A program made the position numbers and the translations under genes. Below, in pieces: positions 933 through 48,525 of a stretch of 64,000 nt of DNA (the stretch's first letter is position 1; every line of letters starts with the position of its first letter). This stretch comes from Actinomycetota bacterium. GTDB lineage: Bacteria; Actinomycetota; Rubrobacteria; Rubrobacterales; Rubrobacteraceae. The notes under the pieces are model-generated. The model ran no database searches, was not told the DNA's origin, and saw only the letters and a program-made list of their open reading frames with translations. The stretch lies in contig JBKPNW010000063.1 of the NCBI GenBank assembly GCA_046732815.1, positions 3,370 through 67,369 on the forward strand, read 5' to 3'.

Positions 933-1009
933 ACAGCCAGTCAGCTAGTCAGAATTTCAGCTGGTCAGCTGCTTTGCTGAAGTGCTGACCGGCTGAATTG
1001 CTGACTAGC
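933..1009. repeat. TCAGC/GCTGA-array element E1
   Basis: (T/A)CAG(C/A) at 933, 941, 949, 957, 965, then GCTGA at 976, 984, 992, 1000: exact 8-nt period. Arms 944-969 and 984-1009 form a 23/26 inverted repeat. Confidence 0.9.
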
Positions 1010-1047
1010 GCGCCGTGCATGAGGCTCACAAGCCTCATGCACGGCGC
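1010..1047. repeat. Perfect 17-4-17 palindrome abutting E1
   Basis: gcgccgtgcatgaggct-caca-agcctcatgcacggcgc. Confidence 0.95.
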
Positions 1048-1092
1048 TTTGGACCTATATACTCTGTCGGGGAGAGACGAAAGGAGAATTCC

Positions 1093-2664
1093 GTGAGCGA
1101 GAAGGTCTACCGCAGCGAGCTTACACCGGTCAGCTTCCTCAGGCGCAGCGCCTACATGTTCCCCGAGAAGACCGCCGTCGTCTACGGCGGGCGGCGTTAC
1201 TCCTACAGAGAGTTGGAAGAACGTGTCAACCGCCTGTCCTCGCGGCTGCGCGACGCCGGGCTAGAGAAGGGCGACCGCGTCGCCTTCCTGTGCCCCAACA
1301 CGCCGCCCATGCTGGAGGGCCACTTCGCCGTACCCGCCGCCGGACTCGTGCTCGTCGCCATCAACACCCGCCTCGGCAAGGACGAGGTCTCCTACATAGT
1401 CGAACACTCCGGCGCCAAGATGGCCTTCGTGGACGCCGAGCTGGAGGAGTTGCTCGCCGACGTCGAGGGCGTCGAGATCGTTCGCATAGACGATACAGGG
1501 GAGCGGGGAGACCCGTACGAGGATTATCTGGCCGAAGGCTCGCCGGAGCCGGTACCCGACGTACTCGAGGACGAAGAAGAGACCATCTCTATCAACTACA
1601 CCTCGGGTACCACAGGTCGGCCGAAGGGTGTGATGTATACGTACCGGGGGGCTTACCTGAGCGCGCTCGGAAACGCCATCGAGATCGGGATGGGCTACGA
1701 GACCAGATACTTGTGGACCCTCCCCATGTTCCACTGCAACGGGTGGACGTTCCCGTGGGCCGTTACGGCCGTCGCGGGGACGCACGTGTGCCTGAGGCGG
1801 GTCGAGCCGCCGCGCATCTGGGAGCTCTTCGAGGAAGAGGGGATCACCCACTACTGCGCGGCACCGACCGTCCAGATCGGCATAGTCAACGAGGAAGCGG
1901 CACACCCATTGGAGACGCGCGTAACCGCGGCCATCGCCGGTGCCCCGCCCTCCCCCACCCTGCTCGGCGGTCTCCTCGAACTGAACATCCGGCCGATGCA
2001 CATCTACGGCCTCACCGAGACCTACGGCCCGATGACGACGAGCGGGGTCCATCCCGAGTGGGAGGAATTGGAGATGGACGAGCGCGCCGGCCTCATGGCC
2101 AGGCAGGGCCAGGGCTACACGACCGCAGACCTCGTGCGCGTCGTCGACGAGAACATGAACGACGTCGAGCGCGACGGGGAGACGATGGGTGAGATCGTGA
2201 TGCACGGCAACATGGTCGCCAAGGGTTACTTCGAGAACGAGGAGGCCACCGAGGAAGCGTTCGAGGGCGGCTGGTACCACTCCGGCGACGTGGCGGTGTG
2301 GCACCCCGACGGGTACGTGGAGATCAGGGACCGCAACAAGGACATCATCGTCTCGGGCGGCGAGAACATCTCGACCATCGAGGTGGAGCAGGCCGTCTCA
2401 CGCCACCCGGCCGTGATGGAGGCAGCCGTCGTCGCCGTTCCCCACGAGAAGTGGGGCGAGCGTCCCAAGGCTTTTGTCGTGCTCAAGAAGGGGCTGAAGG
2501 CTACTGAAGAGGAGATAATAGACTTCTGCAAGGAGCACATCGCCCGCTTCAAAGCCCCCGAGGCCGTCGAGTTCACCGAGCTACCCAAGACCTCGACGGG
2601 CAAGGTCCAGAAGTTCGTGTTGCGCGAGAAGGAATGGGCCGGCCGTGAAAAGCAGGTGAATTAG
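1093..2664 (+). CDS. Acyl-CoA synthetase (AMP-forming fatty-acid CoA ligase)
   Basis: AMP-binding motifs YTSGTTGRPKG, YGLTET, GD, RxKD and PKTSTGK; RBS aaggag before GTG 1093. Confidence 0.92.
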   Translation: MSEKVYRSELTPVSFLRRSAYMFPEKTAVVYGGRRYSYRELEERVNRLSSRLRDAGLEKGDRVAFLCPNTPPMLEGHFAVPAAGLVLVAINTRLGKDEVSYIVEHSGAKMAFVDAELEELLADVEGVEIVRIDDTGERGDPYEDYLAEGSPEPVPDVLEDEEETISINYTSGTTGRPKGVMYTYRGAYLSALGNAIEIGMGYETRYLWTLPMFHCNGWTFPWAVTAVAGTHVCLRRVEPPRIWELFEEEGITHYCAAPTVQIGIVNEEAAHPLETRVTAAIAGAPPSPTLLGGLLELNIRPMHIYGLTETYGPMTTSGVHPEWEELEMDERAGLMARQGQGYTTADLVRVVDENMNDVERDGETMGEIVMHGNMVAKGYFENEEATEEAFEGGWYHSGDVAVWHPDGYVEIRDRNKDIIVSGGENISTIEVEQAVSRHPAVMEAAVVAVPHEKWGERPKAFVVLKKGLKATEEEIIDFCKEHIARFKAPEAVEFTELPKTSTGKVQKFVLREKEWAGREKQVN

Positions 2665-2674
2665 AGGAGTTGCC

Positions 2675-3466
2675 ATGATCGAAGCCCAGAAGACCTACGA
2701 GCACATTGTTTTCGAGCAAGATGGCGTTGTCGCGTACGTTAGTATGAACCGTCCGAACAAACGCAACGCGCTCTCGCTCGCCCACATGAAGGAGTTGATC
2801 TCTTGCTTCAAGGGGATCGGGGAGAGCGGGGACGTTTCAGTGGTCATCCTGCGGGGGGAGGGGCCCGCGTTCTGCGCCGGGCACGACCTCTCGGAGATGA
2901 TCGGGCAAGTTCCCGGATTCTACCGGCACCTCTTCGACGTCTGTTGCGAGTTGATGGAGACCATCCAGGCCATCCCACAACCCGTGATCGCGCAGGTCCA
3001 CGCCACGGCTACCGCCGCGGGATGCCAGCTCGCGGCTACGTGTGACCTCGTGGTGGCCTCCGAGGAGGCGCGGTTCGCCACGCCCGGTGTGCGCATCGGG
3101 CTGTTCTGTTCGACCCCCATGGTCGCCCTCTCTCGCGCCATCGGCCAGAAGAAGGCGATGGAGATGCTCCTTACGGGCGAGTTCGTCCCGGCGGACGAAG
3201 CCCTTGCGGAAGGCCTCGTCAACAGGGTGGTTTCGGCCGAGGAACTCGAGGCCGAGACACGCTCCTTGGCCGAGAAGATAGCGGAGGCCAGCCCGCTTAT
3301 CGTGGGGCTCGGCAAACAAGCGTTCTACCGTCAGCTCGAGATGCCCACCGAACAGGCCTACGCCTACACCAAAGAGGTCATGTCCTTCAACGCCTCCTTC
3401 GCGGACGCCCAGGAGGGCATGTGCGCGTTTCTGGAGAAGCGTAAGCCGGAGTGGAAGGGTCGCTGA
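2675..3466 (+). CDS. Enoyl-CoA hydratase/isomerase family protein
   Basis: Crotonase motifs FCAGHDLSE, AAGCQL and FLEKRKP C-terminus. Confidence 0.92.
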   Translation: MIEAQKTYEHIVFEQDGVVAYVSMNRPNKRNALSLAHMKELISCFKGIGESGDVSVVILRGEGPAFCAGHDLSEMIGQVPGFYRHLFDVCCELMETIQAIPQPVIAQVHATATAAGCQLAATCDLVVASEEARFATPGVRIGLFCSTPMVALSRAIGQKKAMEMLLTGEFVPADEALAEGLVNRVVSAEELEAETRSLAEKIAEASPLIVGLGKQAFYRQLEMPTEQAYAYTKEVMSFNASFADAQEGMCAFLEKRKPEWKGR

Positions 3467-46547: not shown

Positions 46548-47794
46548 AAGGCTACTTCGTCGGTGGAGGTCGAGGGGGAAGAGTCGGACACGACATCCGC
46601 TTCCTCCGAGCCGATGCCGAGCGCATGCGCGGCGACCTCGACATCCTTGTCGCCGCGACCCGAGATGTTGACGACGATGTTCTTTCCCCGCCCGAGCTCT
46701 CGGGCCACCTTCTCGGCGTAGAAGAGGGCGTGTGCCGTCTCGAGCGCCGGGATTATGCCTTCGAGGCGCGAGCACGTTTGGAGCGCCTCGAGCGCCTCCC
46801 CGTCGGTGACACTCGCGTACTCGGCGAGGCCCTCGTCTTTGAGATACGCGTGTTCTGGTCCTGTGGCGGGATAATCGAGGCCGGCGGAGATGGAGTGGGC
46901 CTCGCGGATCTGGCCGCCCTCCGTCTGCAACACGTAGCTCATGGCCCCGTGCAACACGCCCAATCTGCCTTCGGCGAGAGAAGCTCCGTGCTCTCCCGTG
47001 GCGAGCCCGCGTCCGGCCGCCTCGACGCCGACGAGCCTGACGTTATCTCTCCCGACAAACGGATGAAACGCCCCGATGGCGTTCGAGCCGGCGCCGACGC
47101 AGGCGACGATGGCGTCGGGGTCGCCACCGAGACGCTCGCGGCTCTGGGCCTCTATCTCCGTCCCTATAACGGCCTGGAAGTCGCGTACGATCCTCGGGTA
47201 AGGCGCGGGCCCGACGACGCTTCCGATGATGTAGTGGGTGTTCTCGACGTTCGCCACCCAGTCCCTTATCGCCTCGTTGACAGCGTCTTTGAGGGTGCGA
47301 GAACCCGAAAAGACGGGCACCACCTCGGACCCGAGGAGCTTCATCCGCACGACATTGAGCCTCTGACGGCGGGTGTCTTCGTCGCCCATGTAGACGACGC
47401 ACTCCTTGCCGTAGAGGGCGGCGACGGTGGCGGTGGCTACGCCGTGCTGGCCGGCGCCGGTCTCGGCGATGATGCGTTCTTTGCCCATCCGGTCGGCGAG
47501 CAGTATCTGGCCCAGGGTGTTGTTGATCTTGTGCGCCCCCGTGTGCGCGAGGTCCTCGCGCTTGAACCAGACGTTGGCTCCGCCCCACCTCTCGGTCAGG
47601 CGCCCGGCGAACATCAGCGGGGTCGGCCGGCCGACGAAGTCCCTGGCCAGGCGGTCCCTTTCCTCGACAAATTCGGGGTCGTTCCGGTAGCGTTCGTAGG
47701 CCTCTTCGAGCTCTTCGAGGGCGTGGATCAAAGTCTCGGGCACGTAACGGCCCCCGAACGGTCCGAAGTAACCCTTCTCAGTCTCTTGCCGCAA
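46544..47794 (-). CDS. trpB: Tryptophan synthase beta chain
   Basis: [46 protein letters not shown]. Confidence 0.97.
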
Positions 47795-48392
47795 GGACGA
47801 ACCTCCGCACCCGCTCACCGTTCTTTATACCCGGCCCATCCTCCAGGGAACTCGACGCGTCTACCCCGTAGGGCTCGAAGAACTCGACCGCCTCGTGTAC
47901 GTTCTCCGGGCCGAGCCCGCCGGAGACGACGATGTTATCACGTCCTCTCACGGACTTCGCCACCTCCCAATCGAACCGCTCGCCCGTGCCTCCCCGCACC
48001 CTCTCGCTGAATGTATCGAGCAGGAAAAGGTCGGCCTCGTAAGCGTCCAACGCCTCGAGCGAGGTGGCGTCTCTTATCCGCAGCGCCTTCATGACTTTGA
48101 CCCCGCCTTCCCGCACGGCGGTTACGGTCTCGGGCGTCTCCTCACCGTGGAGTTGAGCCAGGTCGAGCCCGACCTCCCGCGAGATCCTCGAGACCTCGGC
48201 CGGCTCCTCGTCCACGAACACGCCGACTCTGATGATGTTCTCCGGCAGCGCTTTGGAGATCCTGCGCGCCTCCTCGACACCCACGCGACGCGGGCTCTCG
48301 GCGAAGATGAACCCTACCGCGTCGGCCCCCGCGTCGGAGGCCGCGCGGGCGTCCCCGGCGTTGGTAATGCCACATATCTTGACCAGCGTCAT
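47778..48392 (-). CDS. trpF: Phosphoribosylanthranilate isomerase
   Basis: VKICGIT, QLHG.E, GGTG..FDW, SGGL.PENV, GVDASS. Confidence 0.95.
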
Positions 48393-48414
48393 AATGCGAA
48401 GTGTACTCCTTAAA

Positions 48415-48453
48415 GCGGGTTGGGGGAGGGGCGGCGCCCCTCCCCCAACCCGC
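48415..48453. repeat. Perfect 18-3-18 palindrome abutting E10, 23 nt upstream of trpF
   Basis: gcgggttgggggaggggc-ggc-gcccctcccccaacccgc. Confidence 0.95.
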
Positions 48454-48525
48454 GCCGATCAGCCGGTCAGCAATTCAGCTTGTCAGGTTTTTGATCTGGC
48501 TGACATGCTGAGCGGCTGACTGACC
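48454..48525. repeat. TCAGC/GCTGA-array element E10
   Basis: tcagc-cgg-tcagc-aat-tcagc-ttg-tcagg, T-rich centre, gctga-cat-gctga-gcg-gctga. Confidence 0.9.

Follow-up and report, generated by a model that had tools for sequence, protein, structure and literature searches.

How do perfect palindromes come to stand, with no intervening base, against the ends of a repeated element? The question is raised by four sites in a 64,000-nt window (the whole stretch of DNA analysed here; positions 3,370 to 67,369 of contig JBKPNW010000063.1, assembly GCA_046732815.1) from a genome of the genus Rubrobacter (3.42 Mb in 306 contigs, 63.8% G+C, 93% complete). The initial annotation had reported a palindrome directly after GCTGANNNGC at each of them, and all four junctions and their coordinates were verified in the sequence. 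At site 1, gctgactagc (1000-1009) is followed by GCGCCGTGCATGAGGCT caca AGCCTCATGCACGGCGC (1010-1047; two 17-nt arms about a 4-nt loop, or 17-4-17), and at site 2, gctgaaatgc (3965-3974) is followed by GCGGTTTGCA atcc TGCAAACCGC (3975-3998, 10-4-10). Sites 3 and 4 lie on the minus strand, where gctgactagc (33123-33132) adjoins a 15-1-15 palindrome (33092-33122), and gctgatcggc (48454-48463) adjoins one (48415-48453) that is 19-1-19, or 18-3-18 with the innermost pair counted as loop. None of the four stems contains a mismatch. These palindromes are probably the terminal hairpins of Rubrobacter-specific mosaic elements, homogenised, flipped and extended by copying at the DNA level.

The elements belong to an abundant repeat whose unit is the 8-bp word GCTGANNN. 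In the window GCTGANNNGCTGA occurs 36 times against an expectation of 0.13, and approximately 383 clusters of array units are present in the genome. A cluster usually consists of TCAGC units, a short centre and GCTGA units, and thus forms a pair of inverted arrays, among whose units small GC-rich hairpin modules are often interspersed. Of 234 left-right array pairs, 225 enclose a centre of less than 160 bp with no open reading frame. A pattern of three units was found in 15 of the 19 same-genus genomes searched (the present one included), with 2 to ~450 matches each, while 12 genomes representing other families of the phylum had none. [quoted passage not shown] The arrays represent a family of mosaic elements confined to Rubrobacter, small and non-coding, in which internal hairpin modules may or may not be present. 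No match within the window was obtained from Rfam at gathering thresholds, and no description of this array family was found in the literature on Rubrobacter repeats.

When array termini were tabulated genome-wide, a hairpin was found to start between −3 and +6 nt from the last unit at 122 of 429 termini but at only 6 of 2000 random positions, far above chance. Most often the last unit and the hairpin are 2 nt apart (the bases GC, 72 cases), and next most often 3 nt (18 cases). Perfect hairpins with a stem of at least 14 bp and a loop of at most 8 nt number 155 in the genome, 110 of which abut an array on exactly one side; Markov simulation yields almost no hairpins with stems of that length. 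The modal loop length is 3 nt, and 14 of 154 hairpins are loop-less. The freedom from mismatches noted for the four window stems does not extend to the whole genome, where 25 of the 108 junction hairpins with a stem of at least 12 bp are imperfect (a single mismatch in 19 and two in 6) and 83 perfect. Hairpins located away from arrays are also mostly perfect, with 42 perfect, 8 with one mismatch and 2 with two. Similarly, the reported preference for promoter or 5' regions is true inside the window, whereas over the whole genome 77 of the 115 hairpin ends are turned towards a stop codon (genome-wide gene calls were made with our own crude codon-usage caller). One record stands apart: at the end of contig C183 (6097-6256) a perfect palindrome of 59 bp has a family B hairpin at its centre (families are described below), and all that follows it before the contig stops is reverse-complementary to the flank upstream. 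It was considered as an extreme case of palindrome growth and rejected as a probable fold-back contig end, given that its flanks are mutually reverse-complementary.

The four palindromes had been described as unrelated to one another, which is correct for site 3 alone. A listing of all junction hairpins revealed families that recur at many loci, and sites 1, 2 and 4 fall within them. Family A has the form CTTGCAAAGAGG ctcaa/ttgag ...CAAG CTGCTGTA. Family B has the form GCGGTTTGCAAAAGGGT ca/tg ...CCGC TCTA, with flanks that read TCTA, and the hairpin of site 2 is a short form of it. The site 1 hairpin belongs to a family GCGyCGTGCATGAGGCT, with further members on contigs C149, C58, C265, C201 and C198 of this genome and in the relative G006, and that of site 4 belongs to a large G-rich group, GCGG-n-TT-n-GGGAAGGG.

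The outer arms of these hairpins point to a family of insertion sequences (IS). Matches to the DDE_3 (IS630-family) transposase are present in 23 of 26 genomes of the genus. A search for terminal inverted repeats (TIRs) around IS630-like genes by self-BLAST and k-mer extension gave nothing clear, and the IS ends were defined from two copies in G006 that have different flanks. The ends of IS630-like elements in the genus consist of TA followed by GAGCAGCTTGCAATGAG; the two G006 copies start with TA and GAGCAGCTTGCAATGAGC, and a copy in G034 with TA and CAGCGGCTTGCAATGAGG. The family A arm, CAGCAGCTTGCAAAGAGG, is identical to the IS ends of G006 and G034 at 15-16 of 18 positions, while the family B and site 1 arms reach a score of 9 against IS630 TIRs, equal to the 99th percentile of shuffled sequences (9). 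In array tips that carry no hairpin, the likeness to the IS is limited to TA followed by GAGC. The outer hairpin arms of families A and B, and more weakly the site 1 arm, thus appear to resemble the IS630-family TIRs of the genus. A complete composite on contig C30 shows how the parts are arranged: on the left, TA is followed by CAGCAGCTTGCAAAGAGG ctcaa CCTCTTTGCAAG and then by CTC-TCAGC arrays, and on the right, GCTGA arrays ending in GC are followed by GCGGTTTGCAAAAGGGT ca ACCCTTTTGCAAACCGCTC and then by TA. A complete copy opens with TA, a TIR-like arm, a loop and the inverted copy of that arm, continues through arrays, a centre and further arrays, and closes with the opening parts in reverse order (inverted copy, loop, TIR-like arm, TA). 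The outer arm of the terminal hairpin may accordingly be read as an IS630-type TIR beside the target TA, and the inner arm as its inverted copy.

Comparison of filled and empty sites indicates how three of the four hairpins reached their positions. In addition to the window sites, eight junction hairpins that fit no family (u1-u8) were compared with the orthologous loci in five relatives. At site 1, G033, G032, G010, G001 and G004 keep the divergent gene pair and its CCTATATACT box, with neither the element nor either arm. A local origin of the site 1 far arm was considered and rejected, as its match to the ancestral promoter (11 of 16 positions plus a gap) is too weak and the arm is that of a multi-locus family. 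Site 2 is empty in G018, G008 and G003, which read TAG GCCGGCGCG TCA, with convergent stops 9 nt apart and no arm; G006 has the same insertion, with TA(G) on both sides, the same stem and the loop reversed. At site 4, where the element is common to the present genome and G006, nine relatives carry ~110 nt of conserved promoter sequence in its place and lack both arms. The hairpins at u2, u5 and u7 are of the cargo type and absent from the empty sites. Given empty sites without either arm, and outer arms that are TIR-like in families A and B and more weakly at site 1, hairpins 1, 2 and 4 appear to have arrived with the element. Clean duplications of TA are seen at u1 (filled in G031, empty in G008 and G009) and at site 2 (filled in G006, empty in G018, G008 and G003), and these two pairs show insertion into TA with TA duplication, a further character of these MITE-like elements; the insertion at u5 is an exception. 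In the u2 orthologue L191 (G006:C28:31265-31755), a long T-rich low-complexity stretch takes the place of the upstream region.

Site 3 has a different history. Its element is present in G037, G031, G015, G006, G003, G032 and G008 and absent from G001 and G033. The core of the palindrome and the outer far-arm sequence TCGCAG occur in every relative, including the element-less G001 and G033 and six distant species, and the core may be read as an operator that belongs natively to the neighbouring LysR-family gene. The near-side CTGCGA is found only in genomes that bear the element, immediately beside GC-TAG-TCAGC. Four of the filled orthologues are perfect, in three versions (present genome and G037; G015; G032), and the others have 1-3 mismatches. 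The expectation that relatives with an empty site would hold one arm of the palindrome was borne out for the outer pairs at site 3, where the far arm is native and exists without the element, but not at sites 1, 2 and 4, where both arms are absent. Pre-existence of both arms in element-less relatives, which would have spoken for an older palindrome, is confined to the inner core of site 3.

Inverted copies of native sequence were also found at u1, u3, u4, u6 and u8. At each of these, 6-13 nt of the far arm are native, and the near arm carries them as an inverted copy; the native sequence consists of the last codons and stop of a gene whose C-terminus is conserved in relatives. At u3, every relative ends the gene in R-R-R-E-T-I-stop (GAG ACG ATw TAG), and the far arm GAGACGATATAG corresponds to the codons for E-T-I and the stop, conserved in five relatives. 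In G031 and G032 the array stands immediately past this stop with no hairpin, and the present genome reads TAG, GGCGTGC tg GCACGCC, CTATATCGTCTC and AGC-ATT-TCAGC, in which the last three codons and stop recur as an inverted copy of 12 nt. At u8 all 13 nt of the far arm belong to codons for S-E-T-G, with the stop TGA lying across the loop; a cargo hairpin is absent here, and flank and tip form by chance only a 3-bp seed (GCT-GA-AGC). The native sequence at u6, CGA-TGA-GC, is common to the present genome and G031. At u4 (L-D-S-stop), the present genome, G031 and G006 differ in synonymous codons and each copy mirrors the version of its own species, while in G018 and G008 the array is present with no copy. 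At u1, G031 has the core hairpin alone, and the present genome has 6 additional pairs (TGTAGA/TCTACA) that take in the stop codon. Copying ran unambiguously from native DNA to the element side, since the far arms are made of conserved coding sequence. Judged from these orthologous alignments, inverted copying of adjacent DNA onto the element side is real at site 3 and at the five other loci. The earlier proposal that insertion copies adjacent DNA in inverted orientation therefore fits the outer pairs of site 3 and u1, u3, u4, u6 and u8, but does not account for hairpins 1, 2 and 4. Expansion of a repeat by inverted copying of adjacent sequence, as expected of template switching, is likewise seen at site 3 and at these five loci.

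Two further signs of template switching, homogenisation of arms and inversion of the spacer, were both found. Of 128 arm positions aligned in ten comparisons of orthologues, 25 differ (~20%), similar to the divergence of nearby non-coding DNA (~17%), with one intra-hairpin mismatch overall. Two substitutions and one indel separate the site 4 hairpins of the present genome and G006, and each change in one arm is matched in the other. Loops occur in either orientation between identical flanks: CTCAA eleven times, TTGAG twice and TAGAG once in family A, and TG six times and CA five times in family B (two artefactual records from the C183 contig end set aside). The loop of site 2 is flipped between the present genome and G006.

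These observations are brought together by a model in which one arm of a hairpin templates the other, which would hold the arms complementary while the species diverge at a roughly neutral rate. The same copying would invert loops. A palindrome could grow outward when an inverted copy of the sequence beyond the far arm is added on the element side, and such growth would be the source of the outer pairs at site 3 and of the gene 3'-end copies elsewhere. The process is suggested to be intra-strand template switching during replication or repair synthesis, in which the nascent strand folds on the hairpin and copies itself; the copies would persist on the element side alone because the far side is usually coding sequence. 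The elements themselves may be mobilised by IS630-family transposases. Template switching between the arms of inverted repeats is described as homogenising arms, inverting spacers and expanding repeats in three reports (PMC8604942, PMC13100816, PMC8794818). Since the hairpins remote from arrays are also mostly perfect, a general process fits better than an element-specific enzyme. Template switching is our preferred account of the copying step, though fold-back synthesis would suit the data as well.

A number of observations weigh against this account. At its junction with the array the hairpin lacks both TA and the outermost TIR bases, which means that the composite is no simple nested insertion. 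When arms were scored against the three sampled TIRs, only 8% of them exceeded the shuffled 99th percentile, and the G-rich family of site 4 is tied to TIRs through intermediate forms, with no direct match. No intact IS630-family transposase was found in the 93%-complete, 306-contig assembly, which holds three degenerate pieces. None of the array pairs was found to enclose an autonomous parent with GCTGA-array ends: five pairs 0.3-3.3 kb apart were considered and rejected, as they enclose ordinary genes (histidine kinase, Fe-S assembly, amidohydrolase, Ser/Thr kinase and peptidase) and no transposases. The insertion at u5 is not at a TA, and the 16-nt GC-rich centre of the u3 palindrome could not be traced to a source. 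Finally, the proportion of native-derived arms (6 of 12) is not a genome-wide estimate, as the extra loci were picked for unique-looking hairpins.

The alternative that survives best concerns the copying step alone. The element tip would be cut by an IS630-type transposase or another nuclease, and the 3' end would fold back, be extended (for example by the polymerase of LigD, which acts in non-homologous end joining) and be rejoined, giving a templated inverted insertion exactly at the tip. This break-and-snap-back route is possible but doubtful. The inverted copy always lies exactly between the far arm or flank and the array tip, (G)AGC NNN TCAGC, IS630-family transposases break both strands precisely at element ends (PMC2170065), loops of 1-5 nt suit snap-back priming, and u8 offers a 3-bp chance seed in place of a cargo hairpin. 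Against it, the perfection of most array-free hairpins (42/8/2) makes an element-specific cut unnecessary; the hairpins are perfect although the genome has no intact transposase, and their one-sidedness is equally explained by selection against copies on the coding side. The stronger proposition, that copying is an element-end-specific reaction (tip cut plus fold-back priming) and no passive error of replication, and that it continually rebuilds terminal hairpins and writes inverted copies of neighbouring host sequence, gene 3' ends and stops among it, onto the elements, is somewhat more doubtful again. If it were true, captured host sequence could be built into a new terminus and move along with the element, and the large number of hairpin families that are divergent but perfect would be explained. 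A related suggestion of the initial annotation, opening of hairpin ends, is unlikely, as it predicts loop-less palindromes centred on the junction, whereas only 14 of 154 hairpins lack a loop, and IS630/Tc1-mariner transposases cut without a hairpin intermediate (PMC2170065).

The position of the hairpins relative to genes bears on two weaker alternatives. Hairpins begin 0-4 nt past the stop codon in dozens of genes, where a stem could matter for mRNA ends, and hairpin-bearing ends are enriched on stop-facing sides (odds ratio 2.0, p=0.003). Both facts would suit point mutation followed by selection for a stable RNA or DNA stem, with compensatory substitutions and no templated copying. We regard this as improbable, because it cannot make a 12-13-nt inverted copy of last codons (u3, u8) or the mirrored indel of site 4, gives no account of loops that exist solely as a sequence or its exact reverse complement, and would need many paired substitutions with almost no intermediates to produce ~20% arm divergence with one mismatch.

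Still less likely is that the elements used pre-existing terminators or operators as insertion targets, in the manner of group IIC introns or of IS1111/IS110 elements beside palindromes. The core of site 3, with its native operator in all relatives with or without the element, and the 77 of 115 hairpin ends that face a stop codon, where terminators are expected, would agree with such targeting. It is contradicted by the empty sites 1, 2, 4, u2 and u5, which have no hairpin at all, by relatives in which the u3 and u4 arrays stand against the stop codon without a hairpin, and by hairpin families common to unrelated loci; in addition, hairpin-less ends are equally tight to stop codons, with 85 of 151 stop-facing ends within 6 nt of the stop as compared to 42 of 77 hairpin-bearing ones. 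An assembly artefact, in which a short-read assembler folds back at inverted repeats as probably happened at the end of C183, is hardly credible for the four sites and the other hairpins, which are contig-internal with unique, different flanks on each side and have orthologues at the same loci in the independently assembled G006, G031, G037, G015 and G032.

Stop codons touched by arrays are TAG in 76% of cases, TAA in 20% and TGA in 3.6%, as compared to a genome-wide usage of 46%, 15% and 39%, so that TAG and TAA together make up 96% of array-touching stops and 61% of all stops. Elements that insert at TA and begin with G may regenerate TAG stops. TAG is the commonest stop in this genome, where TGA would be expected to dominate at 64% G+C.

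Within the window, the element of site 1 (930-1009, plus strand) consists of TCAGC units, a short centre and GCTGANNN units that terminate in GCTGACTAGC. Its position is a divergent promoter region, with a minus-strand gene (start ~860) on one side and an acyl-CoA synthetase-like gene (1093-2664, plus) on the other; the conserved CCTATATACT box and ribosome-binding site of the latter are just downstream of hairpin 1. The site 2 element (3805-3974, plus) has internal hairpin modules and occupies the entire gap of two convergent genes. Its terminal hairpin with the tip TC and TA extends over 3975-4002, and CTA at 4000-4002 is the stop codon (TAG) with which the adjoining minus-strand gene (4000-5424) touches the tip. 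At site 3, where the outer 5-6 bp of the palindrome on the element side are the added inverted copy, the element (33123-33216, plus; GCTAGTCAGC ... GCTGACTAGC) is located in the divergent promoter of a putative LysR-family regulator gene (33238-34197, plus), so named by reading its N-terminal sequence. The hairpin of site 4 (G-rich family, GCGGGTTnGGGAAGGG; 48410-48453) is followed on the minus strand by TT-TA and then by AAGGAG, the ribosome-binding site of a 204-aa gene (47778-48392, minus). The site 4 element proper (GCCGATCAGC ... GCTGACTGA) covers 48454-48523 (plus), and at its other end a single arm of a site-1-type hairpin (CCATATGCACAGCGCCG, 48524-48540, plus) is fused directly to the array. 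G006 has both arms there; either one arm was lost in the present genome or one was gained in G006.

Several other features of the arrays and their surroundings were noted. The window elements at 14969-15043 and 15849-15923 have ~100-nt centres with conserved blocks in common. A motif, GCGACCGAAGGGAG / GGCGACTGAAAGGAG, holds the ribosome-binding site of several genes adjoining element ends (33217-33237, 15970-15995, 10604-10623 and 56660-56680 in the window); at site 3 it also occurs in the element-less G001 and G033 and is therefore native there rather than element-borne. At the orthologue of window 10604-10790, G008 and G033 have analogous inverted arrays of ~8-nt units with a TCAGG/CCTGA core and the same boundaries, and G033 has TTAGC/GCTAA arrays as well. 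At the orthologue of window 33123-33216, there are GAGGTT/AACCTC arrays in L136, L139 and L140 (G016, G012 and G011) and a 7-nt GTCAGCn array in L138 (G014). The occurrence of arrays with different cores at identical intergenic positions suggests a superfamily in which the unit sequence changes between species. A separate family of GTAG-headed, REP-like hairpins (after the repetitive extragenic palindromic, or REP, sequences), GTAGGGGCGGGTTT c/g AAACCCGCCCCTAC, is found directly after stop codons, on C78 (19419), C264 (249) and C64 (30811) of the present genome and in L208-L210 (G037, G008 and G031).

The repeats described here make up an abundant and apparently undescribed family in Rubrobacter, a radiation- and desiccation-tolerant actinobacterial genus. 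They fill whole intergenic regions and adjoin stop codons, and they also occur in divergent promoters, beside an operator (site 3) or upstream of a promoter-like box (site 1). Stems that start 0-4 nt past a stop or overlap it are likely to influence termination, the stability of mRNA or the release of ribosomes. In annotating genomes of this kind, a perfect palindrome where a gene ends is not necessarily to be taken for a native terminator. The loci are an unusually clear natural record of inverted-copy mutation, in which perfect palindromes have grown into host DNA including last codons. With dozens of dated orthologous hairpins that display conversion, loop inversion and growth, they could serve as a test bed for template switching, and they bear on the origin and upkeep of long perfect stems, the direction of copying being readable from the conserved coding arm.

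RUP of Streptococcus pneumoniae is an example of a MITE derived from the IS630/Tc1-mariner group. Such MITEs, like the Rubrobacter elements, are small, non-coding, multi-copy and variably present, and insert at TA with its duplication, a mechanism demonstrated for ISY100: IS630-family elements insert at TA and duplicate it, with cleavage falling exactly at their 3' ends and 2 nt to the inside of the 5' ones (PMC2170065). Likeness of the outer ends to the TIRs of IS630-family elements in the genus is clear for family A and weaker for family B and site 1. Unlike them, the Rubrobacter elements have a body of inverted arrays of 8-bp GCTGANNN units with swappable hairpin modules, can end in a palindrome (a TIR and its own inverted copy) rather than in a plain TIR, and have no full-length array-bearing parent that could be found. 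The mosaics of REP sequences (bacterial interspersed mosaic elements, or BIMEs) mobilised by RAYT (Y1) transposases in enterobacteria and pseudomonads (PMC2817692) are likewise abundant extragenic hairpins, set among other short motifs and often just past stop codons, and effects on mRNA 3' ends are likely common to both. The Rubrobacter junction hairpins, however, lack the 5' GTAG head, beginning with GCGG, GCGA or CTTG after the GC, and combine perfection with high variability, where REP hairpins are imperfect and uniform. A REP/RAYT system was considered and rejected, because no Y1/RAYT transposase (PF01797) was found at any place in the present genome; PF01797 occurs in 3 of 26 genus genomes (G031, G008 and G004), unrelated to array abundance.

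P-nucleotide palindromes, as in V(D)J joining and hAT footprints, are likewise inverted copies of flanking sequence at the junction of transposon and flank, but they are loop-less, usually 1-4 nt long and located at the empty donor site, whereas the Rubrobacter hairpins have loops mostly of 1-5 nt, arms of up to 22 nt and the element still in place. The prior hairpin that marks the targets of group IIC introns and IS1111-type elements is absent, except for the core of site 3. In template-switch (quasipalindrome) mutagenesis (PMC8794818, PMC8604942, PMC13100816, PMC7202029), arms are homogenised by seemingly compensatory changes of several bases, spacers inverted and flanks taken up by expansion, and all three are present here. 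Compared with the template switching described there, the Rubrobacter events are concentrated at the ends of one mobile-element family, keep more than 100 hairpins perfect at ~20% divergence, and repeatedly copy gene 3' ends and stops. The phenomenon is probably a combination of an IS630-type MITE with template switching, both of known kinds.

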